Source of the DNA: a virus
Taxonomy: Duplodnaviria; Caudoviricetes
Direction: 5' to 3' (one strand)
Length of the DNA: 53,175 nt
Virus record (IMG/VR): IMGVR_UViG_3300023103_000006
Location: 1-53,175 of that record
Shown: positions 7,096-34,946 of the stretch, in pieces
Layout of the letters: each line of letters starts with the position of its first letter
Position numbering within the stretch: position 1 is the stretch's first letter
The notes under the pieces: generated by a model
What the model was told of the DNA's origin: nothing
Databases searched by the model: none
The model's input: the letters and a program-made list of their open reading frames with translations, nothing else
Program-made: the position numbers and the translations under genes

Positions 7096-7098
7096 TTA

Positions 7099-8922: not shown

Positions 8923-11410
8923 CAATCCAATAAGATTTTATAAACTTGACGATTCAGAAGACCGTTACAAAAACTACCATGAGCCTAGAGATATGCGCAG
9001 AGGAGTATTAACGCAAAAACAAGGAGAAACAATTAAATTCTTTGCACCTAAATCTGATTTTGAGGGAATAGATATTAGAACTTTGCAAGTAGGACTATAT
9101 GGTGAAGCGTTTGAAGATTGTGTAAGTTTGGGCTATCAATTATTAGAAGATAATATAGGATTTCTAAGAGAACAACAGTCACGATTCTATTATGAAATGG
9201 TGATTAAGGTCAATAACGCGCCCTCGACTACTTGGAAACAGTTTTCCTTATTACGACCAAACGGACAGCAATTATTCGGAACCTATACAGGACAAGAAAC
9301 AGATTTAGAAACCTACATAAATAATTTAAAAGATTGGCTAGAAGCGTACCCACACACACGGGTTGATGCCTACAAAGAAGGAAACCTAATAAGATTAAGG
9401 GTTTGGGAGTCTGGCAATTTTATAATCAGGAATGAAGAAATAACAGTAGGATTGGGTACGGTATCAGTATTGAACGAGAATAGTCCGACATTGCAAAGAG
9501 GTGCTAAAACTACTTACAACAGACCTGCTTATAATACTTACGACTTAGTAATTGGCAGCGATGTAACCGAAGGCAATATTTTTACTTTAGGTGATGTGAC
9601 TTATACCGCAACCAAGGCAGATACAGCAGCAACGGTAAAAGCTGCCCTACTTGGCAATAATTCAAAGGTAGTTATTAATGTAGGAGATATAATACCAATA
9701 AACGCATCAGTAGGAACTGTAAGAACTGTAAACACGAATAACCCGACTATAAACGACCTTTACAATGATTTGCTGAGCGGAAACGACCGATATATAATAG
9801 AGATAGAGAACGTTCAAAAAGGAAATACATTCCAGGTTCTTAGAAGTGGATTAAGTCCCTTAACTATTAAGGCAAGCGAAACTGACACTAAAGCAACTAT
9901 TGAAGCATTTTTTAATTCAACTGGTGGCTTCTTGGTAGTACCTGCCGGAACAATACTAACAGTAAGCGCAGTTCCTGGCGTTAGAATTGACGACAACACA
10001 AATTCGCCTAGTATCAGTACTGCAAATGCCGTATTAACCCCGGCACAAATGACGGACAGGTGGAGAATATTTGTCGGAACAAGCGTAAGAAAGAATAATA
10101 AGTTCGTATTAGGTGATATTGAAGTAATAGCAGACGAAGACGATACCTATTTAACCATTGCCACAAAGTTAGGTCTAATTGACGGATTGTATTATGAAAT
10201 AGAGGAGGATGGCGTATTTAGTTCTTATGCAGAACGAGGGGAATTGTATGATGATGAAAATATTGCAGATATTCAGATTATATCTTCACCGATTAGACGA
10301 ATATCTCAACAATACCTATGCGAAGTGACTATGCCAGCAGGATACACCGGAAAGGCTCTACAAATAGCAGTTAGCGAGTATTCAAGAAATGACGAAGAAC
10401 AAACTTGGATATTCATTAGAACGGTTGTAGTTTCTAACTACATAAGAATAGAGGTAGACCCAAAAGAAACAGTAATGGTGCGATGTTCTTCATTAGGTGA
10501 AGCGTTTGGATTTGAGTATTTTGAGCAAGGAATTAATCAGCAAATGAGATTCCCTATTTACCTGAGAAATGACGGATACGAAACAACCTTAACTAAATCA
10601 CAAAGCGTAAACGATGCTACAGTAAACGGGAATACGCAACTCAGACCAATTTCTGACTTTCAGGTTTTAGGTTATCCTAGTTGGTTTCACAAATCACTGC
10701 AAACATGGCTTAGAAGCGATGTTGTGATGGTTGATGAAATGAAAATATCATTGATTAATTATGAAGTAAGTGAAGACGTTGGAGCCAAAAAAATACAATC
10801 AGCCAATGGTAGTTTGTATAAAGAAATCGGCATAATGAAGAATTACGGGAAATTATTTCTGGATTATGACAATTTTCAAGAAAAAGTTTCTGTAATAACC
10901 AACTTTAAGAGTAAAATAATTTGTGTTATCCTAAAAAATGACTTATTTTGTCAGGAAGTATTCGAAAGAGGAGAAATATTTATTCCGGTTGGCGAATACA
11001 GATGGAAAGCATGGGTAGGCGGAGCAGTAGGAGATACGGTGGACATGAGAATCTACCAGAATGGAACAAGGATTCATCACGTAACCATGTATTGTGGCAG
11101 AATGAATATGCTAGACTCTTTAATCAGGGTTTACACACACGACGAGTTGTTATTTGAAGAGGTAAGTCAGGAAAACATGACCATTGTAGGTATAGATACG
11201 AAGACCGAAACAACAGTTGCTTATGAAAGTGTAGACTATGCAGACGAAATAGGGGACTACGATAAATTGAATGGATATGTAGCACCATTTGTGCCACCAG
11301 CAGAAACAAATGCCGGACAATGGAGGGATAGAATAGACGAAGACACTAATCTATCGATTGAACAAAATACAGACGAAACGGGTTGGGTACTTAAATCAAT
11401 AATATCATAA
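8909..11410 (+). CDS. Putative tail/baseplate structural protein with internal repeats
   Basis: 833 aa in the tail module; three repeated ~85-90 aa units. Confidence 0.55.
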   Translation: MRLFDNPIRFYKLDDSEDRYKNYHEPRDMRRGVLTQKQGETIKFFAPKSDFEGIDIRTLQVGLYGEAFEDCVSLGYQLLEDNIGFLREQQSRFYYEMVIKVNNAPSTTWKQFSLLRPNGQQLFGTYTGQETDLETYINNLKDWLEAYPHTRVDAYKEGNLIRLRVWESGNFIIRNEEITVGLGTVSVLNENSPTLQRGAKTTYNRPAYNTYDLVIGSDVTEGNIFTLGDVTYTATKADTAATVKAALLGNNSKVVINVGDIIPINASVGTVRTVNTNNPTINDLYNDLLSGNDRYIIEIENVQKGNTFQVLRSGLSPLTIKASETDTKATIEAFFNSTGGFLVVPAGTILTVSAVPGVRIDDNTNSPSISTANAVLTPAQMTDRWRIFVGTSVRKNNKFVLGDIEVIADEDDTYLTIATKLGLIDGLYYEIEEDGVFSSYAERGELYDDENIADIQIISSPIRRISQQYLCEVTMPAGYTGKALQIAVSEYSRNDEEQTWIFIRTVVVSNYIRIEVDPKETVMVRCSSLGEAFGFEYFEQGINQQMRFPIYLRNDGYETTLTKSQSVNDATVNGNTQLRPISDFQVLGYPSWFHKSLQTWLRSDVVMVDEMKISLINYEVSEDVGAKKIQSANGSLYKEIGIMKNYGKLFLDYDNFQEKVSVITNFKSKIICVILKNDLFCQEVFERGEIFIPVGEYRWKAWVGGAVGDTVDMRIYQNGTRIHHVTMYCGRMNMLDSLIRVYTHDELLFEEVSQENMTIVGIDTKTETTVAYESVDYADEIGDYDKLNGYVAPFVPPAETNAGQWRDRIDEDTNLSIEQNTDETGWVLKSIIS

Positions 11411-11598
11411 TGGCTTATTTATATAACGTAGGGTTAAAGGTTATAGGCAATAGAGATAAAAGTATTATTGAGCCTAATCCCACACCACCAGTAGCAGGAA
11501 GCTGGAGACGAAGAGTATCGGGAGAAGGTGAAGCAAGTGTTTTGATTTACGAGAAGTTCGACGGTACGATTTGGGAAACTAAACAGGTAATATCTTAA
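11410..11598 (+). CDS. Small structural protein similar to the C-terminus of the upstream protein
   Basis: TAATG overlap; AGSWR...E...W..K..IS motif shared with the upstream C-terminus. Confidence 0.55.
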   Translation: MAYLYNVGLKVIGNRDKSIIEPNPTPPVAGSWRRRVSGEGEASVLIYEKFDGTIWETKQVIS

Positions 11599-12608
11599 TG
11601 GCCGTAAATGCAGCGCAAATAGTCGAAGGACATTATCAAGGTTCTGCCGAAGTCATTGTAGAATGTGATGAAGCAGACGGAACCGACATTGTAGTATATA
11701 GGTATGTGAACGGAACCGCTACATTAGTAGGAACAGCAGAACTGGGAAACGATACCGGATTAGGAAGTGGCAAATCAAGAGTACCATTAACTGAGAATAT
11801 TTCAATTGGGAATCAGTTAGTAGCTTATGTTGAGGAAAGATGGAAGCAAGGAGGCGACCCAGTTCCGGTTTACGAGTTATCGGACGGATTAAGAACCGGG
11901 TGGCGTGGCCCTGACGTAATTTATCTGGATGGTGATGTAGAAATTAGCTACGAGGAGTACCAACAATTAGGAGGGCAGGAAATAGCAAGTGTCTATGACC
12001 CACAAGCCACGATAAACAATACAGTAAACAGATGTGGCGATGCGCCCAAACAATTTGCAGATGCTACTTTAATACTAGAAAAAACAACGGCAGATTTAGG
12101 CGCAGGAGTGGTAAACGTAGAATACGCAACAATAGGGAACTTTAATCCGGCTTTAGGTGCAGCACGTGTGCAATGGGATGGCGGAGCGATTACGCAGGAC
12201 TATCAACAGACTTTTGTATTTGCAGATAATGGAGCGCACGTTGTGAAAATATATCCAGAGAACTTGGATTACGAAACAAAAGAATTTCCTTTTACGGTTT
12301 CAGTAGCATCAGGAACGCCAGCCCCGGCAGTAGCAGATATAAGAGCAGTAGCGTACGAAATAAATCCGGCCGCTAACAGACAGGTAACTGTATTAGCGTA
12401 TTCGGATAGACAACTAGAAAGCAGAGTAGTAGGATTAGACGACGGAGTACATGGTTCAGGAGCATGGGTTGCAATGAGCGGTTCAACTGGCGGCAAATGG
12501 CAACAACCTATTCCTTTTCAGAATGTGCCAAACGGCAATTATAGTGTAGATTGCAGGGTACAAGGCACAGTAACGGTAGTAACAGTAGCTTTAAAAGTTG
12601 ATTTCTAA
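11598..12608 (+). CDS. Putative virion structural protein (Ig-like, beta-rich)
   Basis: 336 aa, G/V/T/A-rich; in the tail module. Confidence 0.5.
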   Translation: MAVNAAQIVEGHYQGSAEVIVECDEADGTDIVVYRYVNGTATLVGTAELGNDTGLGSGKSRVPLTENISIGNQLVAYVEERWKQGGDPVPVYELSDGLRTGWRGPDVIYLDGDVEISYEEYQQLGGQEIASVYDPQATINNTVNRCGDAPKQFADATLILEKTTADLGAGVVNVEYATIGNFNPALGAARVQWDGGAITQDYQQTFVFADNGAHVVKIYPENLDYETKEFPFTVSVASGTPAPAVADIRAVAYEINPAANRQVTVLAYSDRQLESRVVGLDDGVHGSGAWVAMSGSTGGKWQQPIPFQNVPNGNYSVDCRVQGTVTVVTVALKVDF

Positions 12609-13914: not shown

Positions 13915-15834
13915 ATGCTTGATTTTCAAAGAATACTTCCTTATTTAAAAGTAGATGAAAATGGAATCCCGATAGACAAGAAATTGCGACACGCCGGGTA
14001 TGACAGAAGCATTGAAATTGCAAATGATATAAAGGACGTATTCAGCGAAAAGTTCCCTGAGTTTTTAAAAGTAAAGAGACCCAAAGAAAAGGCAGTTCAT
14101 TTGAAATACCGGGAAATGATTTACTTGAATAAGGTAATGAAGTTCCGAACCAAAGCAATGTCTTTGATAACTACGATAAAGCAGAACGATGATTTTAACG
14201 TAACTTTTAAGGATGAGAACATTTTCAAGGACTACACGGAAACTGAAATGTTTGATAATCAAACCTTGCCAGAATGGTTCTTTTCTGAATGGGCAAAGTT
14301 TAGTATTGACGACCCGAACGCAGTTATCGCACCTGTCTTAAAGGATTTTGCAGAGAATGACCAGGAGTTTAACCAACCAACTTTAAAGATATTCTCATCT
14401 GTTGGTGTAATTCAACTAAACAAGGATATTTGCGTTTTAAGAGGTGACGAAAAGACATGGATTAACGTAAACGGTACACAAGAGAAAATAGGACGTAATC
14501 TTTATTTTTACGACAAAGATTCTTTTCTAATTTGTAGACAAACAGGTAAAAATGTAACAACCGAAAACGAAACCAATTATAATTGGCAGATAATTGGACA
14601 AAATTTAGTTGAATTTGAAAATGAAATATTAGAAGTTCAGCCATTTGCAACCAATACTACCAAGATTCCTGCACAGAGAATCGGACGTATATTAGGCGAG
14701 AAGATAGACGGAGAAGTGCAATTGTTTAATAGTGAGATTTCAGACGCACTGCCGTACCTTAAAACAATTGGTTTAAGGATTTCGGATACTGAAATTGAAT
14801 ACTTACAGCACATACATACGGTAGAATGGTTTGTAACAACAAAGCACGAATGTAAAGAACCTGGGTGTGTTAATGGGTACGTAACTAATCCGACATGGAG
14901 ACCAGGCACAGACATACCGCCAAAACACAAATGCCCAAAATGTGACGACAAAGGATTTCCTATTAATGGACTTGAAATTATCGTGCATACGGTTTCAGAT
15001 GATGGCGGCATAGATTCTAACAAGAGTGCCAGTATACCTAATCCACCCGGAGGTTTTATACCGAGAAACATTGAAACGGTTCGGGAACTGAGATTGGAAA
15101 TTGCTAATAACGAAGCCAGCGCATACGGAACAATGGATTTGCTCTATATGTTTGAAACCCCACTAAACACAAGTGGAAAGTCTAAAGCCTATGACAGACA
15201 GGACAATTACATTCGTAGAGCAGATATTAGCGTACACACTAAGAAGCAGATAGATTTCGGATACAATAGTACAGCGTGTTTTATGCTTGGTACAATTGGA
15301 AATGTAGAAAGGTATTTGCCAGTAGTGAATGTGCCGACCGACAGTTTTGATTTAGCGACCCAAGAAGAAGCCTTAAAAGACCTTACAGAAGCGAGTGGAG
15401 TGGTTAGCGGTATTGTACAAAATGCTTTAGAAATACGATACATACAAAAACAATTTGGCAAAGATACAAGTCTATCTAAATTGCTAATTCTTCATAATCG
15501 AATTGACCCATACGACTCTATTAAAGGAGGTAATAGGGCGGAAGTTTTAGACCTGATGATGTTTAACAACATTAAATTGTATGGGATAGATAGTGAAAAT
15601 TTAATGTTTTTGGTAAAGAAAAATACATTAGCGAAGCAAAAAGACAGCATTGTAAAGGATTTGATTAAATTATATCCTGACTTTTTAGATTTTAAAATTG
15701 AAAAGCAGGACGCATTAATTGAGACACAGTTAGAATTTTATCTTCCTGAAAAAATAAGTGAAGACGTTTATAAACCAATTAAGCAAGAGCCAATGGTAGA
15801 CGTAGTAAAAGAAAACCAAGTGGCATTAAATTAA
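13915..15834 (+). CDS. Portal protein with Cys-rich insertion
   Basis: 639 aa upstream of scaffold/capsid; SGKSKAYD motif typical of portals; CKEPGC...CPKC insert. Confidence 0.75.
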   Translation: MLDFQRILPYLKVDENGIPIDKKLRHAGYDRSIEIANDIKDVFSEKFPEFLKVKRPKEKAVHLKYREMIYLNKVMKFRTKAMSLITTIKQNDDFNVTFKDENIFKDYTETEMFDNQTLPEWFFSEWAKFSIDDPNAVIAPVLKDFAENDQEFNQPTLKIFSSVGVIQLNKDICVLRGDEKTWINVNGTQEKIGRNLYFYDKDSFLICRQTGKNVTTENETNYNWQIIGQNLVEFENEILEVQPFATNTTKIPAQRIGRILGEKIDGEVQLFNSEISDALPYLKTIGLRISDTEIEYLQHIHTVEWFVTTKHECKEPGCVNGYVTNPTWRPGTDIPPKHKCPKCDDKGFPINGLEIIVHTVSDDGGIDSNKSASIPNPPGGFIPRNIETVRELRLEIANNEASAYGTMDLLYMFETPLNTSGKSKAYDRQDNYIRRADISVHTKKQIDFGYNSTACFMLGTIGNVERYLPVVNVPTDSFDLATQEEALKDLTEASGVVSGIVQNALEIRYIQKQFGKDTSLSKLLILHNRIDPYDSIKGGNRAEVLDLMMFNNIKLYGIDSENLMFLVKKNTLAKQKDSIVKDLIKLYPDFLDFKIEKQDALIETQLEFYLPEKISEDVYKPIKQEPMVDVVKENQVALN

Positions 15835-15839
15835 ATATT

Positions 15840-16142
15840 ATGGCAAAGAATAAAGAAGAAGAAGGCACACCAATTGGGTTATCTGAAAAAGAGTTTTTTG
15901 CAAGAAAAGACCTTTTGGAAAAGAAAGCACGCATCTATGTAGAAGTAGCGGAAGGCAGAGGAGAAGACGAAAAAGGTAAATCTATCGTGATGTACCCGGC
16001 TAAAGAAATCGAAGTACAGCCAGCTTATTGGAGTACTATTTTACGAGACAAAGAGACGGGCGAACCAATGAAAGAACAAAAGTTAGTTGGCTACAAGATT
16101 GAAGAGAACGGAGAAATGAAACATTATAAATTTAAAGAATAA
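15840..16142 (+). CDS. Hypothetical head-module protein
   Basis: 100 aa charged ORF between portal and scaffold. Confidence 0.6.
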   Translation: MAKNKEEEGTPIGLSEKEFFARKDLLEKKARIYVEVAEGRGEDEKGKSIVMYPAKEIEVQPAYWSTILRDKETGEPMKEQKLVGYKIEENGEMKHYKFKE

Positions 16143-16144
16143 AT

Positions 16145-16987
16145 ATGAAATTAGGCACAGTAATTAACGAGTTCGCAAAAAAGGCAGGACTTGATTTGAC
16201 TAAAATCAAAGACCTAGTAGACGAGCTGAACGCATCTGACAAGCAAATTGACGATGACGTAGCAACACAACTACAACAAAGCCTTTTGACCGAATCGGAA
16301 GCAGAAAGCCGATTCATGAGCAAACACAAAAACGGTCTTTTGACTCAAGGAAAAAAGGAAGCATGGGACGATATAGACAGGAATCATGCGGAAATTATTT
16401 CTCTGTTAGACGCAGAAGACAAAACCAAATTCGATGCACTGAAGACTACAAAGGAAAAAGATAAATTTCTTTTCAACTTCTTTATCGAAAGAAAGATAAC
16501 CGACAAGGATTCTTTAGCAATCAAAAAAGCGCACGACACCTTGTTGTCGAAGATTGACACGGATTACGTGCCTTTATCAAAACACAAAGAGCTAGAAGAC
16601 AAGTATAAACCAAAGGCGGACAAAGCGTTTTTCAGCGAATTTGTAGTTGATGCCGTAACAAATAGTAAAATATCTGAGACTTTTAAATCAAATAAAAGAT
16701 TCAGAACAAATTTAAAAACAGATTTTGATGAACTCCTGACAAAAAGGGGCTGGACTGTAAATACTGAAACCGGAGAGTATTTGGATAAGGAAGGCTTGCC
16801 TGTTTTGAAAGGAAGTGAAAAAATGAATAACAATGATATTCTTGACGAACTTATGGCAAGTGACGAAGAGTATCTCAAAAAGTCTAATGGTAAACCTGCA
16901 AGTGGGGAAATAACAGTTGATGTACCAAAGGTGAACGGAAGTAGCCTTTTGAATAATCCTAACTATAAAAACCTTGTGAGGCAGTAA
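16145..16987 (+). CDS. Capsid scaffolding protein
   Basis: 280 aa, charged and helical, directly before the capsid gene; low-complexity C-terminal tail. Confidence 0.65.
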   Translation: MKLGTVINEFAKKAGLDLTKIKDLVDELNASDKQIDDDVATQLQQSLLTESEAESRFMSKHKNGLLTQGKKEAWDDIDRNHAEIISLLDAEDKTKFDALKTTKEKDKFLFNFFIERKITDKDSLAIKKAHDTLLSKIDTDYVPLSKHKELEDKYKPKADKAFFSEFVVDAVTNSKISETFKSNKRFRTNLKTDFDELLTKRGWTVNTETGEYLDKEGLPVLKGSEKMNNNDILDELMASDEEYLKKSNGKPASGEITVDVPKVNGSSLLNNPNYKNLVRQ

Positions 16988-17031
16988 TGCTAATTGGCGC
17001 AATTTAATCTTTAAAAATTAAACCAACGACA

Positions 17032-18288
17032 ATGGCAAATAATGTAAATTTAGGTGCAGCCCGGGGGCTGTATGCAGCAATTCTGCATGTAACAAATAAC
17101 TATTACCGATTCACTAACGTAGGAACAACAGGCGCATTGCGTGACCCAGCAAGTAAGCAGATTCAGGACGCAACGAATCCTTTTTTGCTTCAGAATACGA
17201 GCGGAACGACGATTGGTTACGCAGCAGGAACAAGTAACGGAAAACTTACTTTAACGTGGACGCCAGCTTATGCAGGTGGTTATCGTACTTCACGTATCGG
17301 AGCAGGTGGGGCAGCAGATTCAAATGGTGTAAAAACTATTCAGGCGGCACAAAGTTTGGTTTTCAACTTCGACAAAGTAATTGAGTTTGAAGTAATTCAA
17401 CCTTTGGCAACGGCAGATTTCTTTTTGGAGCCTTTGACTATCGAGTATTTGGATAAGTTAGAAAATCCAAAATACATGGTTGAGGCTTTGAACGATGGTA
17501 GATACACAGGAACTCGTGCGCAACTTGTAAGAGTGGGTAATGAAATAATGCGTCGTCTGGACAGAGACATGTTGATTCCGATGGATGATGATTTAATTGC
17601 GACTGTGGCAACTGGAGTAGGACGTAATGTAGCCTATCCTTGGGATAGCACCAATGGAACTTTAAATGCGCCAATCACGCAGATATATGCTTTCAAAGCG
17701 GACGGCACACCGGATGCTGATTTCTGGAACTACATTCAGAACAGTTCTCGTGATAACCGCTACGAAGGTAAAGCGATATTTGTTGGCGGTTCTAAAATGG
17801 CTCAGTACATGCAATTAAAAGGCATTGTAGGGCTTGCAGATACCGGGTATAAGTTAGATGCTCAAATTGAAAATCTTCCTGTACACTGGTATTATGATGC
17901 ACGTATTGACACTATCTTGGGACAAGACGAGTTCTTGATGTGGGATTCTGGCGCAGCAGCTTTGCAAACATGGCTTAATCATAGCACTTACGGAACTGTA
18001 AGACAAAAACGCTATGCAAACATGGATTACGGCAATATGAATGTAACGGTAGGACAATATCGTGGTATCGGATTAGATGGGAATCTTGACAAAGACAATA
18101 TCTCTTTAGATATGGACGTTCGTATTTTGGAAGGTAGAGATTCTGCCGATTATCCAACAAGCCGTGTAGTGCCTTCGATTAACTACGGTGTATTTATGCG
18201 CCCGGTTGGTTACTTCACTTCTGACAATACCGACCCTTTGTATTACATGACTGGTATTTTTAGAGGAAAACTTTTAACAAGGGCTTAA
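17032..18288 (+). CDS. Major capsid protein
   Basis: 418 aa after scaffold; composition and position typical. Confidence 0.75.
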   Translation: MANNVNLGAARGLYAAILHVTNNYYRFTNVGTTGALRDPASKQIQDATNPFLLQNTSGTTIGYAAGTSNGKLTLTWTPAYAGGYRTSRIGAGGAADSNGVKTIQAAQSLVFNFDKVIEFEVIQPLATADFFLEPLTIEYLDKLENPKYMVEALNDGRYTGTRAQLVRVGNEIMRRLDRDMLIPMDDDLIATVATGVGRNVAYPWDSTNGTLNAPITQIYAFKADGTPDADFWNYIQNSSRDNRYEGKAIFVGGSKMAQYMQLKGIVGLADTGYKLDAQIENLPVHWYYDARIDTILGQDEFLMWDSGAAALQTWLNHSTYGTVRQKRYANMDYGNMNVTVGQYRGIGLDGNLDKDNISLDMDVRILEGRDSADYPTSRVVPSINYGVFMRPVGYFTSDNTDPLYYMTGIFRGKLLTRA

Positions 18289-18292
18289 TATT

Positions 18293-19096
18293 ATGGGGTT
18301 ACAGCAAATTCAAATAGACGGAAAGAACGGCGTTTACTTTGTTTTTGAAGAAAAGCAAAGATGGACAATCTACGAGGTACTCGGTCAAATGACTGGCTCT
18401 ATTGATGAGTATACTTCTTTGCAAGATTTACAAGTAAATAATCAAACACGTTTAGTTGGATTTGCTGTAAAACCTAAAATTGGAGACAACCCTTATATTG
18501 GAGGATTTGAAGAAATAAAGCCAGTACAGCCAATAGCACCACAGCCTCCAGATGTGCCGGGCGATTCAGGGTTTATCCTCAATGTGCTGCCATGTGCAAG
18601 CGAAAAAGCAACCGTTTCAATACTTAACGAAGGCTTAACAAGAAAAAAGCCGGGTACGGTTGAATTTCAGCTACTTTTGTTTTCGCTGACCTACGTTAAA
18701 GAGTATTCAGACAAAGGGCTTTTGGCTAAGTGTGATTATGACTTGATAGGAGAAGACGGCAAGATGTATGTAAGTATGCGTCAAAAACAAGGTGCAATAG
18801 CAGGTGGAGACTGCCCAAATAACCACCCACGCTTTGAAGATAATGTGCCAGGATTAGGAAAGTATGATTGTAAGGTATTTTTACCTAAAATAGACTATAC
18901 TCTTAGAATGTGGAATACAGGAGAAACACCTATAAAGCCTTGGTTACACCACCCGGGCAAACAAAGTTCAGATATTTATGTAGGAAGACTGGAAAAATAC
19001 AATGAAGTAGAGGTGTTTATTTCTAAGAACGAATTTACAGGTGCTGACCACGAAAACACCATCAAGATTAACGGTAATTGTGTATATGATATGTAA
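18293..19096 (+). CDS. Hypothetical virion-associated protein with Pro-rich linker
   Basis: 267 aa; PVQPIAPQPPDVPG linker. Confidence 0.55.
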   Translation: MGLQQIQIDGKNGVYFVFEEKQRWTIYEVLGQMTGSIDEYTSLQDLQVNNQTRLVGFAVKPKIGDNPYIGGFEEIKPVQPIAPQPPDVPGDSGFILNVLPCASEKATVSILNEGLTRKKPGTVEFQLLLFSLTYVKEYSDKGLLAKCDYDLIGEDGKMYVSMRQKQGAIAGGDCPNNHPRFEDNVPGLGKYDCKVFLPKIDYTLRMWNTGETPIKPWLHHPGKQSSDIYVGRLEKYNEVEVFISKNEFTGADHENTIKINGNCVYDM

Positions 19097-19165
19097 CTTT
19101 TGAAACTATAAGAGTATCTTTTGCTGTAAAATTTGTCAGATTTTACACATTTTAAAAACAGTTTT

Positions 19166-19846
19166 ATGAAGTTCGTTTTCTTTTTGCTAATTACATTAAA
19201 AACGTATGCGTCTATTGAGATAGATACAACATTTAATCCACCGGGTGATACTACTTCACCAACTGCCAGTATGTACCTGTTAGAATTAGCAGGAAAAGCA
19301 AAGTTTAAAGATTCAGTAAGGTTTCAGTACTTAACAAGATTCTTAGATGTAGCACATTTTACCAACGCATTGATTGAGACATTAAGATTACCAATAGCGG
19401 ACGGGATTTTACAAGTAAGTGAACAGAATGTTTTTTCAGGTGCGATAGCAGCTACGCAAATAGGTAGCGTATCAACCGGAAGGGTCACATTCGGAGATTC
19501 TACTCATAAACTAACAACAAGCGAGCTATTCCGCTACGAAGATTCAACCGGGACATTATTTGTACCTAATATAGTAATAGGTGAAGGAAGTTCTGAAGGG
19601 CTAAGGATAGGAGGAGGATTTGCTAAGATAAAAGGAAACTACACAGCAGATGATAAAATAGAAACAATTTTTGTTGATACAAGTGATGATAAGATAGAGA
19701 TAGACTTGAAACCACCTAAAAGAGAGGGCAAGTCTATTTTTATTAAGAGAGTAAAAGGAAAACACAGTTTTATAGTAAATAAAGAGCATAAAGCAAAAGA
19801 CGACATTAAATTAATATGGGACGGAAACACATGGATAAGACTATGA
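19166..19846 (+). CDS. Fibre-associated protein with predicted signal peptide
   Basis: Likely start ATG 19166 (MKFVFFLLITLKTYA-S); C-terminus YT..I.VD...I.L.P..G..I.IK...LIWDGNTW resembles phage fibre adaptor domains. Confidence 0.6.
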   Translation: MKFVFFLLITLKTYASIEIDTTFNPPGDTTSPTASMYLLELAGKAKFKDSVRFQYLTRFLDVAHFTNALIETLRLPIADGILQVSEQNVFSGAIAATQIGSVSTGRVTFGDSTHKLTTSELFRYEDSTGTLFVPNIVIGEGSSEGLRIGGGFAKIKGNYTADDKIETIFVDTSDDKIEIDLKPPKREGKSIFIKRVKGKHSFIVNKEHKAKDDIKLIWDGNTWIRL

Positions 19847-22800
19847 AATTACTAAAATATATATTATTACTTCTTCCTTTCTGGTCTTTTGCCCAAAGTG
19901 GAACTACCCATACAGGTAAAGTAAATATTAACAATGGCACTACTACTCCTACTGAAAGATTGTACGTGAATGGTACTTCTCGTTTTATTGGGGCTATTCA
20001 AATGAACGCTTACACAAATGGGGTATTAACAGTGAATGGCAGTGGTGTAGTTGGTGTTTCGGCAGGTGGTAGTGTTCCGGCAGCAGGAGCAAGTGGAACC
20101 GTTTTGACTTCAAATGGAAGTACTTATTCATGGAATTTGCTTACTAATACTAACATTGCCGCAGGAGCAGCTATTACGCAATCTAAAATTGCGAACCTAT
20201 CGGACTCTTTAAATGCAAGATTAAGGCTATCTGGCGGAACTATGACAGGGAATCTTACGCTTAGGTATAGCGTTCGGGTAGGTGGTACAAGCCTTTTTGG
20301 GTATAATACATTTTTAGGCAAAAATGCACTTATAGCGTACACCTCCGGTAGTAACAATACAGCAATAGGTGATGCAGCTTTGTCCGTTCTTACGACTGCT
20401 AATTATAACACAGCCGTTGGAGTTAGTGCGCTTAAAAATACTAATGCAACCTCTAACACAGCAGTTGGCGCAAGTGCATTAGAATCTAACACTTCAGGAG
20501 GGTATAATGTTGCAATGGGTATGAATAGCCTAATATCTACAACTACTGGACAAGGTAATGTAGCAACAGGATGGAATGCTTTAGGCAGCAATGTAAGCGG
20601 TTCGGTTAATACGGCTGTCGGGTATGGGGCAGGAAGATATAACTTAGGGAGTAATAATACTTACTTAGGTAGTTTTTCTGGATTAGGCTTTGAAAATCGC
20701 TCAGGAAGGATTTGGATAAGCGATGGACAGTCTAACGTTAGAATCATGTCAGATAGTCTTGGAAACGTAGGAGTGGGAACGAATAGCCCGACTGTTAGAT
20801 TACAAGTGGCTGGTGATTTTACCGTAAGTGGCGCAATCAACACGACACTAAGTAATGGATATGGAAAAATAACTTCTGGAGTATTAGGTTCGGTGTCTTC
20901 TATTCCGGTTTCCGACATAACTGGTACGCTGCCAGTAAATAAAGGTGGTACAGGAGCGGTAACGCTAACTGGATACTTAAGAGGAAATGGAACGGGTGCA
21001 TTTAGTGCAGTAAACTCGATTGATTATTCAGACGTAACATTCCCGGCAACACAAATACCATTCGGAAGTGCTGGGGGGTTTCTTGCTAATAGCGCCGCCT
21101 TCACTTTTGATAGCGGACTAATGAGTGTAGGGGCTGTTAATGCATCATCTTACGTTACTGTTGGAGGAGGGATTAGAACAGGGGCTTTAAGTTATATAAG
21201 AGGACAGGCAAACCTTTATGGTGGAACAATTTATGCTGACAGTACGGGCGCAGGGTATAATCATAGGTATAGAACAAGAATTATAAATGTTGGAGGCGTG
21301 GGTACCTACTCAATTGACTATTCATTAAATGGAGGTATTTTTACTTCTGGAATTTTCAATATAAGAGGTTCTAACGTTGGTATTGGAACGGATAATCCCT
21401 CAACAAAGCTACAAGTAGTTGGTGATGTAAATATATCCACTACCCTAGTTGTGGGTGGGAGGTCTACACTAAACGGCATAGATATTTGGAGAAACGGAGC
21501 GTCTACAAACAATAATAACATTGCCATTGGGGCAAATACATTTACGGCACTTACTACTGGTTTAAGAAATGTTGCTTTGGGCGATTCTTCGTTGAGATTA
21601 AATACCACAGGCGCACAAAACACAGCAATTGGGTACCGGGCAATGGAAAATAATACAACCGGAGGATTTAATGTAGCGATTGGCGGAAATTCCGGGAGAA
21701 GTGCCAATGACGGACTATCTAATAACACCTATATTAATTTTAACGGAGCAGGCGTAACAACGGGGAATAATGTATTCATAGGGGATGGTAGTGCTGTAAG
21801 GATACGAGCCAATTCTACCGGAGACGTAGGTATTAATACAGGTACAAATACGCTTTTAGCTACTGGGGGAGGTCTTGATATTGCAAGTGGATTACTAGCT
21901 GAAGTAGGTGGAGCAAATACAAACTCATCATCAGGACTTAGAACAGATGCAACGAGTAAGGTATTCAGAAAAGGAGCAGTACACTATACAAATGCAGAAG
22001 AGCCAGTGGGAATAGTGATGGTTTCAAGCACAGCAACAAGCGGCATACTAAACTGGGGCGGAGGTTCTACTGCAATGAACGCACCAACACAACAAAGATT
22101 CTATACAGCTGCTAATAATACAACTGTAACAGGAACAGAAAGAATGCGTATTGATAGCTTAGGGCAAGTAGGTTTACCTACAACTGTTATGGGTAGGACT
22201 ATTTCAGTAAACAAGTTAATAACTGGCGCAACAGTATCTTATGGAATTAGCAATGCCGGGGTGACGCAATCAGATGTTACTTCTGCTTCTATTTATTATG
22301 CAACAAACGCAAGCACGGCAGCAGCTTCTTATACCGTACCTAGCTTATATCACTATTACGCTATACAGGGAACAGTAGGGGCAGGAAGTACGGTAACAAA
22401 TCAATACGGTTTTTATGTTGATGCCGGAGCAACAGGAGCGACTAATAACTACGGATTACGCTCAGATTTAGCAGCTTCAACAGGTCGTTGGAACGTTTTC
22501 ACTGGAACTGCTCAGAGTTATTTTGGTGGAAAAATTGGAGTCGGAAGCGGAAAAACAGTTCCAGTATATGATGTTGATGTGAACGGGGTTGTTGGTGCCA
22601 ATAGATTTGTAAGTCAGGGGTCTGCACCTACCATTTCTGCGGGCGCTGGCGCAGGAACAATACCTGCTATTGCACTAGCAGCAGGAAGTACAGACAATTG
22701 GTTTCAAGTGCAATTGGTAACCGGAACATCTCCATCGGTCAGTTCTGTAGTGGCTACTATTACCTTTAGTGGTGGCGCTTATTCTACCGCTTCATTTGGA

Positions 22801-22956
22801 GGATGTAGTCCTGTAAATTCGGCAGCCGCTACGCTGAGTGGCGCAAATCAGGTGTTTTTCACGAATACGACGACAACTTTAGTTATAAATTCAAACACTA
22901 CCGCTTTGGCATCCGGCACAGACTATCGTTGGAATTGCTGGGCAGGGGGTAAATAA
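19843..22956 (+). CDS. Tail fibre/adhesin-like protein with Sec signal peptide
   Basis: Start 19843 by ATGA overlap (MKLLKYILLLLPFWSFA-Q); NxAxGxxAL repeats and GNVG[IV]GTxxP motifs; G/T/S/N-rich. Confidence 0.75.
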   Translation: MKLLKYILLLLPFWSFAQSGTTHTGKVNINNGTTTPTERLYVNGTSRFIGAIQMNAYTNGVLTVNGSGVVGVSAGGSVPAAGASGTVLTSNGSTYSWNLLTNTNIAAGAAITQSKIANLSDSLNARLRLSGGTMTGNLTLRYSVRVGGTSLFGYNTFLGKNALIAYTSGSNNTAIGDAALSVLTTANYNTAVGVSALKNTNATSNTAVGASALESNTSGGYNVAMGMNSLISTTTGQGNVATGWNALGSNVSGSVNTAVGYGAGRYNLGSNNTYLGSFSGLGFENRSGRIWISDGQSNVRIMSDSLGNVGVGTNSPTVRLQVAGDFTVSGAINTTLSNGYGKITSGVLGSVSSIPVSDITGTLPVNKGGTGAVTLTGYLRGNGTGAFSAVNSIDYSDVTFPATQIPFGSAGGFLANSAAFTFDSGLMSVGAVNASSYVTVGGGIRTGALSYIRGQANLYGGTIYADSTGAGYNHRYRTRIINVGGVGTYSIDYSLNGGIFTSGIFNIRGSNVGIGTDNPSTKLQVVGDVNISTTLVVGGRSTLNGIDIWRNGASTNNNNIAIGANTFTALTTGLRNVALGDSSLRLNTTGAQNTAIGYRAMENNTTGGFNVAIGGNSGRSANDGLSNNTYINFNGAGVTTGNNVFIGDGSAVRIRANSTGDVGINTGTNTLLATGGGLDIASGLLAEVGGANTNSSSGLRTDATSKVFRKGAVHYTNAEEPVGIVMVSSTATSGILNWGGGSTAMNAPTQQRFYTAANNTTVTGTERMRIDSLGQVGLPTTVMGRTISVNKLITGATVSYGISNAGVTQSDVTSASIYYATNASTAAASYTVPSLYHYYAIQGTVGAGSTVTNQYGFYVDAGATGATNNYGLRSDLAASTGRWNVFTGTAQSYFGGKIGVGSGKTVPVYDVDVNGVVGANRFVSQGSAPTISAGAGAGTIPAIALAAGSTDNWFQVQLVTGTSPSVSSVVATITFSGGAYSTASFGGCSPVNSAAATLSGANQVFFTNTTTTLVINSNTTALASGTDYRWNCWAGGK

Positions 22957-22965
22957 AACAAACAC

Positions 22966-23757
22966 ATGAAAACCATTTTACTTTTGCTCGTGAGTACCTG
23001 TATTTTTGCACAAACACCAATATCAGGTATTGATTACACATTAACCAGAACAGTTGACAATACAGTTAATAACTATTTCAACGTAGGGACTATTAAGACA
23101 ACAGGAATGAGCGTAGAGGTAATAATTTCCTGCAATTCTGCTACCTGGCCTTCGAGTAAAAGATATAACTTCCAATTAGGCGGAAACCCCTATACTGGCT
23201 GGATGAAAGTACCAAGTTCTAATAATTCTATTGTGACTGACTGGGATTTACAGATTTATATGTACGGTGATTCGACCCAGCTAAGAGTAAAGAATGTTGC
23301 ATCTCATGGCGGAACGGTACCTGTTAATATAACGATTTCGGCAAATGGAAATACAGATGCCAAATTCTATCCGAATGCCGGAACTGGTAGTGATGCAAGC
23401 AATTTGTATACTTATATTTCGTTTAATCCTGAGATAATAAGCAGTTCTTTAGGATTTAAGCCGTACTCTAATACAGCGACTACTACAAGTGGGGTAGCTA
23501 CTTTTTATTTGACAAGCGACAAAACGGCGGGTGGAACGGCTTTGTATGGCACAAATGTTTATCCTAATATTGTGGTGAATGATGCGGCGGCAAATTATAC
23601 TTACGGGTGGTCATTAAGCGGAGATAAAAAGACGTTAACAGTGACGACGAAGGTAAGTTCACAAAATGTAGTGGCATTGGTAGGGCTTACACTAATAGGA
23701 GTTCCGGCTAATGTGCCTAATGGAACTACTGTTTATTTAACTTGTTTTGGATTATGA
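22966..23757 (+). CDS. Fibre-associated protein with Sec signal peptide
   Basis: MKTILLLLVSTCIFA-Q; beta-rich, T/S/N-rich. Confidence 0.65.
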   Translation: MKTILLLLVSTCIFAQTPISGIDYTLTRTVDNTVNNYFNVGTIKTTGMSVEVIISCNSATWPSSKRYNFQLGGNPYTGWMKVPSSNNSIVTDWDLQIYMYGDSTQLRVKNVASHGGTVPVNITISANGNTDAKFYPNAGTGSDASNLYTYISFNPEIISSSLGFKPYSNTATTTSGVATFYLTSDKTAGGTALYGTNVYPNIVVNDAAANYTYGWSLSGDKKTLTVTTKVSSQNVVALVGLTLIGVPANVPNGTTVYLTCFGL

Positions 23758-24320
23758 TAATCAAGCAAAACTTTTTTGATATTGTACGAAAGGAATTAGG
23801 CAAACTCAATCAAAGTCAGGTTGATGGTTTTGATTTTATATTAGATTCGTTGACTAGTCAGGACGAGATTAAAGACTTAAGGCAGTTTGCTTATATCTTA
23901 GCTACTATCTGGCATGAGACAGCCAGAACTATGCAGCCTATTGAAGAGTGGGGTAAAGGTAAAGGACACGATTACGGCAAACCTGACCCCGTGACTAAAC
24001 AGGTTTATTACGGCCGTGGATATGTACAAATAACTTGGAAAGACAATTACCAGAAGTTTGCTAACATCTTAAATATCAACTTAGTAGGTAAGCCGGAACT
24101 GGCACTACAAAAAGAAGTAGCTATTAAAATATGTTTGATAGGCATGAAAGAAGGACTATTTAGGGCTAGCCATAAACTTGATATTTATTTCAACGAAACT
24201 AACGAGGATTGGATAAATGCCAGACTAATCATAAATGGGAAAAAGAAAGGCGAAACGCTACCCGACAAAGCAAAAGAAATAGCAGAATACGCAAAGATAT
24301 TTTATAAGGCGTTGATATAA
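23754..24320 (+). CDS. Endolysin, glycoside hydrolase family 19-like
   Basis: YILATIWHET and YYGRGYVQITWKDNY motifs; start at ATGA overlap 23754. Confidence 0.88.
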   Translation: MIIKQNFFDIVRKELGKLNQSQVDGFDFILDSLTSQDEIKDLRQFAYILATIWHETARTMQPIEEWGKGKGHDYGKPDPVTKQVYYGRGYVQITWKDNYQKFANILNINLVGKPELALQKEVAIKICLIGMKEGLFRASHKLDIYFNETNEDWINARLIINGKKKGETLPDKAKEIAEYAKIFYKALI

Positions 24321-24436
24321 ACACAAAATCCGCTTAGTAGCGGACTTGTGGGTTAACCCAAAAACTAAAACTGATATTTCCCTATCGAATCCAAACCACC
24401 TTTAATCCAACTGAGAAGTGGGGTTTAAAAGGTGAA
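24320..24436 (-). ncRNA. Candidate ~115 nt small RNA antisense to the lysin-spanin intergenic region
   Basis: Minus-strand TATATTTG at 24439-24446 with TTTG 18 nt upstream; 5' hairpin CACCUUU/AAAGGUG; 3' terminator-like hairpin 24322-24350 whose G-U pair forms only on the minus strand; no obvious ORF. Confidence 0.5.
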
Positions 24437-24459: not shown

Positions 24460-24906
24460 ATGCTCAAAATACTTTCGTTCTTTTCTTTGGAAAGAATACT
24501 TTCAATAGTTTCGCTGATTGGTATATTCTATCTAACACGTGATGTAGTAAGCTGCCAGAAGAACAAAGTAATAAGTAAACTCGATAAAGAGATAATCAAA
24601 AAAGATGAAATTATAGTATCAAAAGATTTAGTTATCACTCAACTACAAAAAGACACCTCAGAATACCGTCAGAACTTCGCTATATCAAGTATTCAGATAG
24701 ACTCTTTACAATCTATGGTTCAATACTTTTCAAAGCGTGATAGAGCCTTAAAACGTGATTTATTAGAATCACAAGAATCAATGAAACACGCAATAGATGA
24801 AGGGATAGTAATTTGTGATACTTTATTCGTAAAGCCCGTTAATTTATTCAAAAAAGGAGCTTATAAGCGCATTCCTAAATCAGAGATAAGAGAGATTAGG
24901 GATTAG
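24460..24906 (+). CDS. Putative spanin (Rz-like)
   Basis: N-terminal hydrophobic segment followed by coiled coil; directly after endolysin. Confidence 0.55.
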   Translation: MLKILSFFSLERILSIVSLIGIFYLTRDVVSCQKNKVISKLDKEIIKKDEIIVSKDLVITQLQKDTSEYRQNFAISSIQIDSLQSMVQYFSKRDRALKRDLLESQESMKHAIDEGIVICDTLFVKPVNLFKKGAYKRIPKSEIREIRD

Positions 24907-34433: not shown

Positions 34434-34946
34434 TTACGGCTTAAATATTGAATCCATGCCCATTTTAATTTTACAATCACCTTTATAGCCTTTTTGAAAA
34501 TGAAAGTTTCCTACACTAAAACCAAATGGAAAATCTATCAACTGACCACTTCCATAGATAATCATACTTTTAATGCCCCCGTATTTATTTATCAGATTCA
34601 TGATAATCTGTCTTTGAAAAATTTTATTGGTTGGTACAAGATAGCTGACATTGTCAGCTATCTCAAAACCTTTTCTAAGGAACTCTTCAAAAATAGAGTA
34701 AGGAGGATTTCCAATAACCCAGTCAATCTTTTTATTGTAATCGAAAAAATCTTTGCCTTCTCTTATTTCACAATAATCAGACCCATCAGGTAGGTAATCG
34801 TAAAAGGCTCCGTCTCCCTTACATGGGTCTAAACAAGTGCCTGTGGGATTTAAAAAACTAATTATGTGTTTACTAACTGCGATTGGAGTAAAAACTATAT
34901 CTGCAGGAAGAACTGGTTTATCAAATGCTTCTAGTTGTACGTTCAT
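34434..34946 (-). CDS. Orphan DNA amino-methyltransferase (N6-A/N4-C)
   Basis: LDPCKGDG motif I and IGNPPYS motif IV. Confidence 0.8.
   Translation of the reverse strand: MNVQLEAFDKPVLPADIVFTPIAVSKHIISFLNPTGTCLDPCKGDGAFYDYLPDGSDYCEIREGKDFFDYNKKIDWVIGNPPYSIFEEFLRKGFEIADNVSYLVPTNKIFQRQIIMNLINKYGGIKSMIIYGSGQLIDFPFGFSVGNFHFQKGYKGDCKIKMGMDSIFKP

Follow-up and report, generated by a model that had tools for sequence, protein, structure and literature searches.

Gene organization and export signals

Why would three adjacent fibre-type genes of a tailed phage, a kind of virus whose assembly is to our knowledge otherwise known only in the cytoplasm, begin with host-type secretion signals? The locus lies in the record of an uncultured phage, 53,175 nucleotides long (IMG/VR IMGVR_UViG_3300023103_000006; hereafter the window), and the occurrence of such signals on three fibre-type genes suggests an extracytoplasmic site of maturation for these parts. 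Our preferred reading, to which we assign a probability of about 0.55, is that the three products (SP1, SP2, and SP3) form a receptor-binding module that is exported and added to the virion at a late stage.

All three genes are on the + strand, where SP1 (19166-19846; 226 aa) is called as an ORF for a short fibre-like protein, SP2 (19843-22956; 1037 aa) as one for a long mosaic fibre, and SP3 (22966-23757; 263 aa) encodes a conserved N-terminal domain with a swappable tip. The stop and start codons overlap as ATGA at the SP1/SP2 junction, 9 nt separate the SP2 stop from the SP3 start, and the endolysin ATG at 23754 overlaps the SP3 stop. A sequence-only reading had described three consecutive genes with leader starts, and the ORFs and N-termini match it exactly: SP1 starts with MKFVFFLLITLKTYA followed by Ser (leader residues 1-15, nt 19166-19210; predicted cut between TYA and S), SP2 with MKLLKYILLLLPFWSFA followed by Gln (residues 1-17, nt 19843-19893; cut between SFA and Q), and SP3 with MKTILLLLVSTCIFA followed by Gln (residues 1-15, nt 22966-23010; cut between IFA and Q).

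Leaders were called with our own crude n/h/c-region script and by eye. The script flags signal peptide (SP)-like starts in 9 of the 93 ORFs of at least 50 aa in this genome and in 6 of the 45 of at least 100 aa, with Gln at +1 found only for SP2, SP3, and the gene at 49162-49575. By our own arithmetic, three adjacent flags among 45 ORFs have a chance of roughly 0.06, which is only mildly unlikely. The case for the leaders rests on their conservation. Here, all four SP1 homologues have an SP-like N-terminus, the SP2 pattern MKLLKYIF..AQ with SGT after the cut is kept in the four nearest leader-bearing relatives, and the SP3 pattern MKTILLLL..FA/G with Q after the cut is kept in the single full-length homologue and in the sister-phage copy. 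Leaders are thus retained in all near relatives surveyed, and no conserved internal Met that could start a leaderless isoform was found when SP1-3 were compared with them. According to PMC5837995, Bacteroidetes typically have Gln after the signal peptidase I (SPase I) site, and SP2 and SP3, with Gln at +1 as had been claimed, have the same kind of leader as the Q-rule Sec/SPase I substrates of Bacteroidota. Moreover, of the 30 proteins that share the SP3 tip, 17 have an SP-like start by the script, and in 14 of these the residue at +1 is Gln. Taken with the enrichment of a glycosylation motif in SP1 (see below), the conserved leaders and the Gln at +1 give good sequence support to the earlier proposal that these are genuine Sec/SPase I signals.

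Domain structure of the three proteins

SP2 matches the tail spike family phrog_4636 (E 2e-25) as well as phrog_23837 and phrog_6002 (virion structural), and in tblastn it matched 67 phage records, among them annotated tail fibres of Pelagibacter and Roseobacter phages and tail spikes of Flavobacterium phages. Its description as a repeat-rich fibre is therefore borne out by tail-fibre repeats and by both kinds of match. At E<=1e-3, 38,015 library proteins match SP2. In all five family members, the N-terminal ~110 aa and the C-terminal ~130 aa are conserved, and the only two cysteines of mature SP2, C988 and C1032, are invariant.

The C-terminal tip of SP3 (23458-23754, + strand; residues about 165-263), modelled by AF2 with a pLDDT of about 90, folds as a beta-sandwich like those at tailspike and fibre C-termini, in keeping with the beta-rich tip that had been proposed. 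In VIA, it matches the C-terminus of the Pam1 tailspike RBD (Z 8.4, rmsd 2.1, 70 aligned) and the AP22 gp53 fibre (Z 7.2), Z values that are middling on VIA's own scale, and the first nine ranks are taken up entirely by C-terminal portions of phage or pyocin receptor-binding proteins or depolymerases. The tip is common to 29 other proteins with differing N-terminal parts. Mature SP3 has two cysteines, at positions 56 and 260.

For SP1, the AF2 model has a pLDDT of about 77 in residues ~150-226 and below 50 elsewhere, and AF2 and VIA identify the C-terminal part (19613-19843, + strand; residues about 150-226) as an XD1-type beta-sandwich. VIA matches it to the gp83 tailspike of Solidus (Z 9.4, rmsd 2.0, 76 aligned), residues 79-175 of CBA120 TSP4 (Z 8.8), the Pa223 capsid spike (7.9), CpaA (6o38; 7.8), and StcE (4dny; 6.2), with scores falling below 4 past rank 8. 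In the TSP4-N paper, CpaA and StcE are given as XD1 homologues, and the XD1 fold serves as a spacer or binds glycans, the docking folds being XD2 and XD3. As to the earlier notion of SP1 as an adaptor, the XD1-type domain, found also in CBA120 TSP4, T4 gp9, and T4 gp10, speaks for it, but XD1 is not the docking fold, and no XD2 or XD3 domain was recognisable in SP1.

The Bacteroidota O-glycosylation motif D-[ST]-[AILVMT], as defined in passages of PMC12871550, occurs five times in SP1 against 1.05 expected, a count reached by 5 of 2000 shuffles. All five members of the SP1 family have 5-8 motifs against about one expected (reached by 0-5 of 2000 shuffles), and this enrichment points to exposure to the periplasm. 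No enrichment was found in SP2 (4 vs 2.9), SP3 (1 vs 1.1), or their families.

Some leader-bearing library homologues of SP2 are very long (1200-2300 aa) and resemble bacterial surface proteins, as would be expected if the trio were bacterial cargo, that is, surface adhesins that benefit a lysogen and have nothing to do with the particle. We regard this as very improbable, as neither an integrase-sized gene nor a lysogeny module was seen in the genome, only XRE-type regulators, and the trio is translationally coupled within the late gene string. In addition, the SP3 tip family had no match in one genome per species across 185,579 species, and members of the SP1 and SP3 families sit on contigs of 52-54 kb or on viral contigs.

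Divergence from the sister phage

In the sister phage L012 (52 kb), the order p267-SP1-SP2-SP3-endolysin is kept and all three leaders are present. Identity between the two phages is 91% for the capsid-like p418, 86% for the scaffold-like p280, and 80% for the endolysin, but 38% for SP1. For SP3, identity is 52% over residues 1-202, beyond which the two copies differ, the tip having been replaced, and SP2 can be aligned by BLASTP over residues 12-92 only (72%). The leaderless p267 (267 aa; 18293-19096, + strand), directly upstream of SP1 and with no family match, shows 49% identity, a divergence like that of the trio and far above that of its capsid-like neighbour. The conserved portion of the trio is the N-terminal part, leader included, a pattern as in virion-anchored fibres, and these sequence comparisons support the view that SP1-3 evolve like host-range determinants. 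Together with the matches of SP2, the tip fold of SP3, and the XD1 fold of SP1, this upholds the original interpretation of the locus as a fibre module.

These data also bear on whether the hydrophobic N-termini work as export signals at all. Were they instead a tether to the membrane, a help in assembly, or the remnant of a bacterial gene, folding of the fibres and their attachment to the particle would both take place in the cytoplasm, the textbook site of assembly; in fact, 133 of the best 150 library homologues of SP2 are without an SP-like start by our script, and 12-13 of the 30 members of the SP3 tip family carry the tip on leaderless fibres. Nevertheless, a remnant leader would not persist while the mature parts drop to 38-52% identity, and Gln at +1 together with small residues at -3 and -1 (14 of the 17 SP-like starts noted above) only fit substrates of the Bacteroidota SPase I. 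As the motif enrichment in all five SP1 family members also points to periplasmic exposure, we consider cytoplasmic maturation unlikely.

Genomic context

The trio had been placed between capsid and endolysin genes. The endolysin (23754-24320, + strand) is confirmed by a match to phrog_181 (E 1.2e-33), with a weak Glyco_hydro_19 match (E 1.5e-4) below the cut-off, but the capsid assignment of p418 (418 aa; 17032-18288, + strand) is only a lead. It comes from an Atlas look-alike score of 0.96 to a major capsid protein cluster in which 37% of members have SU10_MCP, and p418 had no sequence match in Pfam, PHROG, or PDB. Downstream of the endolysin, a 148-aa protein (24460-24906, + strand) carries a membrane segment at its N-terminus, the rest being charged and coiled-coil-like; it has no family match and is possibly a holin- or spanin-like lysis accessory protein.

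Among 12 phage records matched by the primase/helicase, all eight with a named host infect Flavobacterium, Polaribacter, or Maribacter (the remaining four name none), in line with a host from the Bacteroidota, probably of the Flavobacteriia. Neither a T9SS C-terminal domain nor S74 was matched at permissive thresholds, as the sequence-only reading had stated. Its claim that there is no other fibre gene fares less evenly: SP2 alone among 20 late proteins scanned matches fibre or spike PHROGs, but four large uncharacterised products of genes past the tape measure (607, 833, 336, and 323 aa) might be the actual baseplate receptor-binding proteins. Elsewhere in the genome, no copy of an SP1-3 domain was found.

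Virion part or envelope factor

The closest analogues in layout are found in two cultured Cellulophaga phages (GenBank KC821618 and NC_021794 for phi10:1 and phi18:3). Here, three consecutive proteins of phi18:3 (gp085-087) and five of phi10:1 (gp091-095) have a leader followed by Gln, and both runs close the block of particle genes, with membrane and lysis genes following directly. GenBank lists seven of the eight as structural or tail proteins, with the note 'annotation based on experimental MS/MS proteomics analysis', though an MS/MS match in purified lysate could also reflect co-purifying envelope material. In four further Cellulophaga phages, residues 1-118 of gp086, a stretch that includes the leader, recur at 82-83% identity, whereas the remainder differs. 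Like SP1-3, then, these are consecutive leader proteins before lysis genes with a conserved N-terminus and an exchanged remainder, but the likeness is one of layout only, as no sequence similarity to SP1-3 was found. Moreover, several are annotated as pectate lyase (tailspike-like enzymes), unlike the repeat fibres here, and the phi10:1 proteins, unlike SP1, show no enrichment of the glycosylation motif. The leaders are absent from the GenBank annotation, and we found no paper describing them (the primary paper lay outside our search) or describing phage fibre genes with export signals.

Because seven of the eight leader proteins at the same position in phi18:3 and phi10:1 are annotated as structural from MS/MS, the analogy favours virion association of SP1-3 over display or receptor masking. 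If exported but not part of the virion, SP1-3 might work within or at the infected cell's envelope, or free after lysis, by masking or destroying receptors so that progeny are spared from debris, blocking superinfection, or loosening surface polysaccharide. The leaders with their Q-rule residues do point to the periplasm, and the trio is coupled to the endolysin gene, not to the tape measure or baseplate genes. The genome also encodes two more exported candidates, namely a 137-aa protein just upstream of the small terminase gene (49162-49575, + strand; MKKIIGLLVLLSLSLCSFA followed by QTAP), with a weak F5/8 type C match (E 0.011) below the cut-off, and a lipoprotein-like 71-aa protein between the tape measure and the next tail gene (6880-7095, + strand; MKRILIIILLFIPISC followed by K), with no family match. 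Phages do export small receptor-masking proteins, such as T5 Llp and Cor of phi80/N15, which are phage-encoded lipoproteins well under 100 aa whose genes lie beside receptor-binding genes. SP1-3, with their SPase I-type sites and fibre size, are unlike this type, and the 71-aa gene fits it better. Within the same phylum, Porphyromonas gingivalis prophages encode Q-rule substrates that passages of PMC10367356 interpret as modifiers of the envelope rather than as fibres or components of the particle, although the example there is 144 aa long and not a fibre. Against an envelope role, the trio is built in full like fibres, the N-terminal part being conserved and the tips variable, as in particle-anchored receptor-binding proteins, and the genome has no leaderless copy of the binding domains for a decoy to imitate. 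With the Cellulophaga annotations also weighing against it, we rate this role as possible but rather doubtful.

Proposed route and comparison with other fibres

From what the sequences themselves present, namely the conserved leaders, the homology to fibres and tips, the N-conserved and C-variable modularity, and the SP1 motif enrichment, we infer export, cleavage, modification, and late docking of the virion-associated module as follows. SP1-3 would be translated late, from one tightly coupled string of genes that includes the endolysin, and moved by Sec into the periplasm, where SPase I would cleave them to expose Ser in SP1 and Gln in the other two, this Gln presumably being cyclised by the host to pyroglutamate. 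Folding and trimerisation may then take place in the periplasm, where host chemistry could add a disulfide in the C-terminal domain of SP2 and O-glycans on SP1. Once the inner membrane is breached at lysis, SP1-3 would meet the cytoplasmically built particle and dock.

Bdellovibrio mosaic adhesive trimer (MAT) fibres, described in PMC10769870, are extracytoplasmic, as SP1-3 would be, and are phage-fibre-like trimeric adhesins with mosaic tips that recognise cell surfaces, but unlike SP1-3 they are bacterial genes of the predator, displayed on its own surface, and some use S74 chaperone domains, none of which was found here. Ordinary tail fibres and tailspikes (among them the branched TSP1-4 complex of CBA120 and the tail spikes of immuto) share with SP1-3 the conserved N-terminus and exchangeable C-terminus, fibre repeats as in SP2, and a C-terminal beta-sandwich as in the SP3 tip. 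They are without a signal peptide and assemble in the cytoplasm, whereas SP1-3 carry leaders, after which no N-terminal baseplate anchor domain was recognisable. In fact, for the Flavobacterium phage immuto, whose tail spikes have repeats in common with SP2, all three neighbouring gene products examined are leaderless, and export is therefore no general need in this host group.

Gene layout and N-terminal leaders of the SP trio

The three leader-bearing, fibre-type open reading frames, SP1 (19166–19846; 226 aa), SP2 (19843–22956; 1037 aa), and SP3 (22966–23757; 263 aa), are arranged in tandem on the plus strand, and upon translation their N-termini proved identical to those quoted in the sequence-only reading. 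Here, the stop codon of SP1 and the start codon of SP2 overlap in an ATGA, 9 nt separate the SP2 stop from the SP3 start, and the ATG of the following gene (at 23754) overlaps the SP3 stop. This neighbour had been taken for an endolysin, and a match to phrog_181 (E 1.2e-33) bears this out. Alternative upstream starts, these being TTG at 19133 for SP1 and ATG at 19816 for SP2, would merely give a longer positively charged n-region. At the nucleotide level, the sole matches of the 17000–24400 stretch among 50,697 phage records (blastn) were segments of 53–92 nt in the endolysin genes of four Acinetobacter phages, which fall at 23888–23980 with 77–85% identity.

Leaders were called with our own crude script for the n-, h-, and c-regions (positive n-region, uncharged hydrophobic h-region of at least 7 residues, and small residues at −3 and −1) and by reading the sequences by eye. 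By this heuristic, all three proteins begin with a Sec/signal peptidase I-type leader, with the cleavage sites predicted by eye at TYA↓S (SP1), SFA↓Q (SP2), and IFA↓Q (SP3). The +1 residue is accordingly Ser in SP1 and Gln in both SP2 and SP3, and Gln following the signal peptidase I site (the Q-rule) is presented as a Bacteroidetes trait in PMC5837995. Genome-wide, the script flagged 9 of the 93 ORFs that reach 50 aa and 6 of the 45 that reach 100 aa, with Gln at +1 only in SP2, SP3, and the product of a 137-aa gene at 49162–49575. Chance adjacency of the three flagged leaders is only mildly improbable, and we consider the conservation of the leaders among related sequences to be the stronger argument.

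The leaders are retained among near relatives of all three proteins. All four SP1 homologues (96, 53, 50, and 38% identical) start with MKF or MKY, then have a hydrophobic stretch and a site of small residues, while the pattern MKLLKYIF..A↓Q(S/E)GT is common to the four leader-bearing proteins closest to SP2, and MKTILLLL..F(A/G)↓Q is kept in the sister-phage copy of SP3 and in its sole full-length homologue. Moreover, no conserved internal Met was found in the SP1, SP2, or SP3 families, so a leaderless isoform produced from a second start is unsupported. We regard it as improbable that the leaders of the trio are non-functional, and the three proteins are very probably exported by Sec and cleaved.

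Export signals are more varied in the wider SP3-tip family, whose 30 members (the window's own included) share the last ~95 residues of SP3 as a C-terminal domain, with unrelated N-terminal parts in the other 29. The script scored 17 of these as signal peptide-like, 14 of the 17 having Gln at +1, and by eye two more (P0008 and P0030) are leader-like, ending in ..SFA↓Q and ..MFS↓Q, while 12 members are without any export signal. Separately, we noticed a lipoprotein-type start (..LLFSC) in P0020 and an apparent N-terminal membrane anchor in P0010, and thus the SP3-type tip occurs behind three different types of export signal, besides occurring without one.

Homology and structural comparison

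The fibre character that had been proposed for SP2 was substantiated by PHROG matches to a tail spike (phrog_4636, E 2e-25) and to virion structural families. A tblastn search with SP2 matched 67 phage records, among them annotated Pelagibacter and Roseobacter tail fibres and Flavobacterium tail spikes, and 38,015 library proteins were matched at E≤1e-3. Among the best 150 of these matches, a signal peptide-like start was found in only 14–17, depending on the script version (17 with the latest), and so SP2-type fibre modules are mostly leaderless. The near family of SP2 (n=5) has a mosaic middle between conserved ends of ~110 residues (N-terminal) and ~130 residues (C-terminal), and the sole two cysteines of mature SP2 (988 and 1032) are invariant in all five, a pairing that fits a disulfide, although as evidence it is weak.

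Neither SP1 nor SP3 gave a family match in profile searches, nor did these two, the capsid-like protein, or a 639-aa protein (p639) match any of the 50,697 phage records by tblastn. Likewise, a PDB sequence search with the capsid-like protein, p639, and SP2 returned nothing, and no paralogue of SP1, SP2, or SP3 was found elsewhere in the genome. We consider it highly improbable that the trio is bacterial cargo. The sequence-only reading had also seen neither a T9SS C-terminal domain nor an S74 chaperone, and both absences held on closer search: SP1–3 gave no match of any sort to Pfam at E up to 5 or to NCBIfam at up to 0.1, the sole exception in this permissive scan being a chance-level IS200 match on SP1. 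As a separate candidate, Llp/Cor-type receptor-masking lipoproteins were considered and rejected for SP1–3, given their signal peptidase I-type sites, the lack of a lipobox Cys at +1, and their lengths of 226–1037 aa; Cys12 of SP3 is part of the h-region, and the sister phage has another residue there.

AF2 models were usable for the C-terminal domains of SP1 and SP3 only. For the SP3 tip domain (pLDDT about 90), VIA-align gave Z 8.4 to the C-terminal domain of the tailspike of cyanophage Pam1 (70 residues aligned, rmsd 2.1) and Z 7.2 to the AP22 gp53 fibre. Every one of structural ranks 1–9 is a phage or pyocin receptor-binding protein or depolymerase, with the proviso that Z scores of 7–8 are common for unmatched models. 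The modelled likeness of the SP3 tip to receptor-binding-protein C-termini is thus support rather than proof, and many proteins with this tip domain bear the usual fibre repeats. An Atlas search with residues 17–165 of SP3 gave a top score of 0.87 with no named family. Matches from a BFVD Foldseek search were weak and for the most part unnamed.

In SP1, residues 150–226 were modelled at a pLDDT of about 77, and the rest at below 50. The closest structural matches of this domain were Solidus gp83 (Z 9.4) and residues 79–175 of CBA120 TSP4 (Z 8.8), followed by the Pa223 capsid spike (7.9), CpaA (7.8), and StcE (6.2), with scores beyond rank 8 below 4. According to PMC8825819, residues 79–175 form XD1, whose structural kin are T4 gp9, gp10, CpaA, and StcE. 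XD1 is described there as probably a spacer but also a glycan-binding fold, with XD2 and XD3 docking the partner spikes. The adaptor role once proposed for SP1 therefore has partial backing only: the model shows an XD1-type domain, and XD2/XD3 jellyroll docking domains are not recognisable in it. From the model, a glycan-binding tip is as possible for the SP1 C-terminal domain as an adaptor. Complex prediction with three copies each of SP1 16–226 and SP2 18–115 gave no verdict for or against their association (score 0.30, mark 0.32).

Divergence and exchange of the module

The sister phage (L012, a 52,093-bp contig) retains the order p267–SP1–SP2–SP3–endolysin, with all three leaders present. 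Between the two phages, identity is highest for the capsid-like p418 (91%), p100 (89%), the scaffold-like p280 (86%), and the endolysin (80%), and then falls through p323 (71%), p336 (70%), p833 (66%), and p639 (56%) to SP3 (52% over residues 1–202, with a different tip) and SP1 (38%), while SP2 is alignable by BLASTP over residues 12–92 only (72%). In related phages, the N-terminal part is conserved and the C-terminal part is fast-changing or exchanged, as in the receptor-binding proteins of fibres and tailspikes. The divergence pattern is that of host-range determinants in which a conserved partner keeps the N-terminal part unchanged. Immediately upstream of SP1, the leaderless p267 (18293–19096, plus strand), with five cysteines, is 49% identical in the sister phage versus the 91% of its capsid-like neighbour. 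Diverging as the fibre trio does, it could be a candidate partner of the trio on the particle.

On the tip-domain tree, leader-bearing and leaderless contexts are mixed, with 9 changes, a number as low being reached in 175 of 500 label shuffles on this weakly resolved tree (16 of 26 inner branches unresolved), where well-supported branches force only 1–2 changes. Among seven viral loci with the tip domain, it is found on leader-bearing proteins in four (L002, L003, L005, and L006) and on leaderless ones in three (L004, L007, and L008), though the L004 gene is possibly cut by the contig end. An endolysin gene lies within about 2 kb downstream of the tip gene in L003, L006, and also the leaderless L008, so lying just ahead of the lysis genes is usual for fibre genes, with or without a leader. 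In the 121-kb viral contig L005, positions 4901–12354 encode four leader-bearing proteins (527, 266, 404, and 634 aa) with a leaderless 437-aa protein interleaved and small membrane proteins directly after, which by its sequences looks to be a further string of exported fibre-type genes. Scans of viral contigs for close relatives (queries SP3, SP1, and P0003) gave nothing, a metagenome scan gave only an 11-kb contig from a 96% relative, and a genome scan with a reduced tip-domain alignment gave no relative.

Cultured analogues and rival functions

A comparable layout exists in cultured Cellulophaga phages. In phi18:3, the consecutive products gp085, gp086, and gp087 begin ..FGYS↓QVLV, ..GVSA↓QTVI, and ..GLNA↓QTVE, and are annotated as a virion structural protein, a structural protein, and a tail protein, each "based on experimental MS/MS proteomics analysis", with membrane-protein genes and an endolysin directly downstream. 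Phage phi10:1, of another family, has five consecutive leader+Gln proteins (gp091–gp095), preceded by tail genes and followed by three small membrane proteins, and gp091–094 bear the MS/MS proteomics note. Moreover, residues 1–118 of gp086, leader included, are 82–83% identical in phi10:1, phi19:1, phi19:3, and phi13:2, beyond which the sequences differ. As no sequence similarity to SP1–3 was found in the phi18:3 and phi10:1 proteins, the Cellulophaga link is by layout only. A counter-example is Flavobacterium phage immuto, in which three neighbouring products (two annotated as tail spikes, with a hypothetical protein between) are leaderless, one of them having repeats in common with SP2.

In the open-licence PMC and bioRxiv literature, no paper describing Sec leaders on tailed-phage tail fibres was found, and the term "signal peptide" occurs 0 times in PMC8776804. 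PMC5723332, PMC6199706, PMC3338817, and PMC5026251 likewise proved to have no bearing on the question. The single prior description found of phage-encoded Q-rule leader proteins concerns Porphyromonas gingivalis prophages (PMC10367356), and that paper gives their function as not known, possibly as outer-membrane modifiers, with one such protein in its supplement being 144 aa. Set beside this precedent, the trio might be exported without ever being particle-bound, acting instead in receptor masking, as a debris decoy, or on the envelope; with leader-bearing proteins of similar layout annotated as structural by proteomics in Cellulophaga phages, we consider this rather unlikely.

A proposed two-compartment assembly route

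Our preferred reading, to which we give a probability of roughly 0.55, is that the trio is exported and then docked on the particle. Under such a route, the head and tail of many Bacteroidota tailed phages would form in the cytoplasm, and the receptor-binding fibres would be exported by Sec. In the periplasm, host enzymes would process them (signal peptidase I and glutaminyl cyclase, with O-glycosylation and disulfide formation in some cases), and they would join the particle only once holin action has breached the inner membrane. Any particles in an unlysed cell would then be fibreless and non-infectious, and lysis would contribute to assembly and not only to release. That such two-compartment particle building extends across many Bacteroidota tailed phages is a more tentative proposition, which we would put at somewhat under even odds.

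Receptor-binding proteins determine host range, and the standing assumption is that they fold, and are attached to the particle, in the cytoplasm. Were the proposed route true for a large group of Bacteroidota phages, then phage production would have host secretion, pyroglutamate formation, and glycosylation among its host factors, host glycans may be present on the fibres, a periplasmic route would be needed to express such fibres for host-range work, and lysis timing would be coupled to assembly.

The Bacteroidota O-glycosylation motif, given as D-S/T-A/L/V/I/M/T in PMC12871550, was counted as D-[ST]-[AILVMT] against 2000 shuffles of each protein. SP1 has 5 sites versus 1.05 expected (5 of 2000 shuffles reach this count), and its four homologues have 5–8 versus about 1 (0–4 of 2000), three of the family's sites (residues 28, 49, and 126 of SP1) being shared and the remainder lineage-specific. 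SP2 (4 versus 2.9) and SP3 (1 versus 1.1) are not enriched, nor are the SP2 family, the SP3 family, or 19 other proteins of the phage, and the motif was thus rejected as a feature common to the trio, since of the three only SP1 is enriched. As a side observation, phi10:1 gp093 (6001–8334 of locus L014), which is leader-bearing and MS/MS-annotated as structural, is depleted in the motif (1 versus 4.1 expected, a count equalled or exceeded in 1976 of 2000 shuffles), the opposite of SP1.

Host and genome context

The 790-aa primase/helicase matched 12 phage records, and all eight with a named host infect Flavobacterium (5), Polaribacter (2), or Maribacter (1). Together with the Q-rule, these sequence matches indicate a likely Bacteroidota, probably Flavobacteriia, host. 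The early region encodes a helicase, XRE-type regulators, and two DNA methyltransferases, the latter on the minus strand at 41817–42287 (phrog_954, E 6e-80) and 34434–34946 (phrog_799, E 9e-27), and no integrase-sized gene was seen in the window. CheckV estimates the completeness of this 53,175-bp IMG/VR virus record at 49%. Despite this, terminase, tape measure, capsid-like, lysis, and replication genes are all present, and three relatives (the sister phage and those carrying P0001 and P0003) are on contigs of 52,093–54,391 bp, so the roughly 53 kb are probably the whole genome.

The late genes have an unusual order, running from terminase (49646–51506) to tail genes (1850–11410; the tape measure and three large uncharacterised proteins) and then to portal-sized, scaffold-like, and capsid-like genes (13915–18288), and the candidate portal and capsid proteins have no Pfam, PHROG, or PDB match. 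Between the tape measure gene (1850–6883) and the next tail gene, a 71-aa gene (6880–7095, plus strand) without a family match has a lipoprotein-type start, MKRILIIILLFIPISC↓K, and its product is a candidate for a small exported protein acting in exclusion or receptor masking. A fourth leader protein of the Q-rule type (49162–49575, plus strand; 137 aa, ..CSFA↓QTAP) is encoded immediately ahead of the small terminase gene, and its mature part is beta-rich, with a weak, sub-threshold F5/8 type C match (E 0.011).
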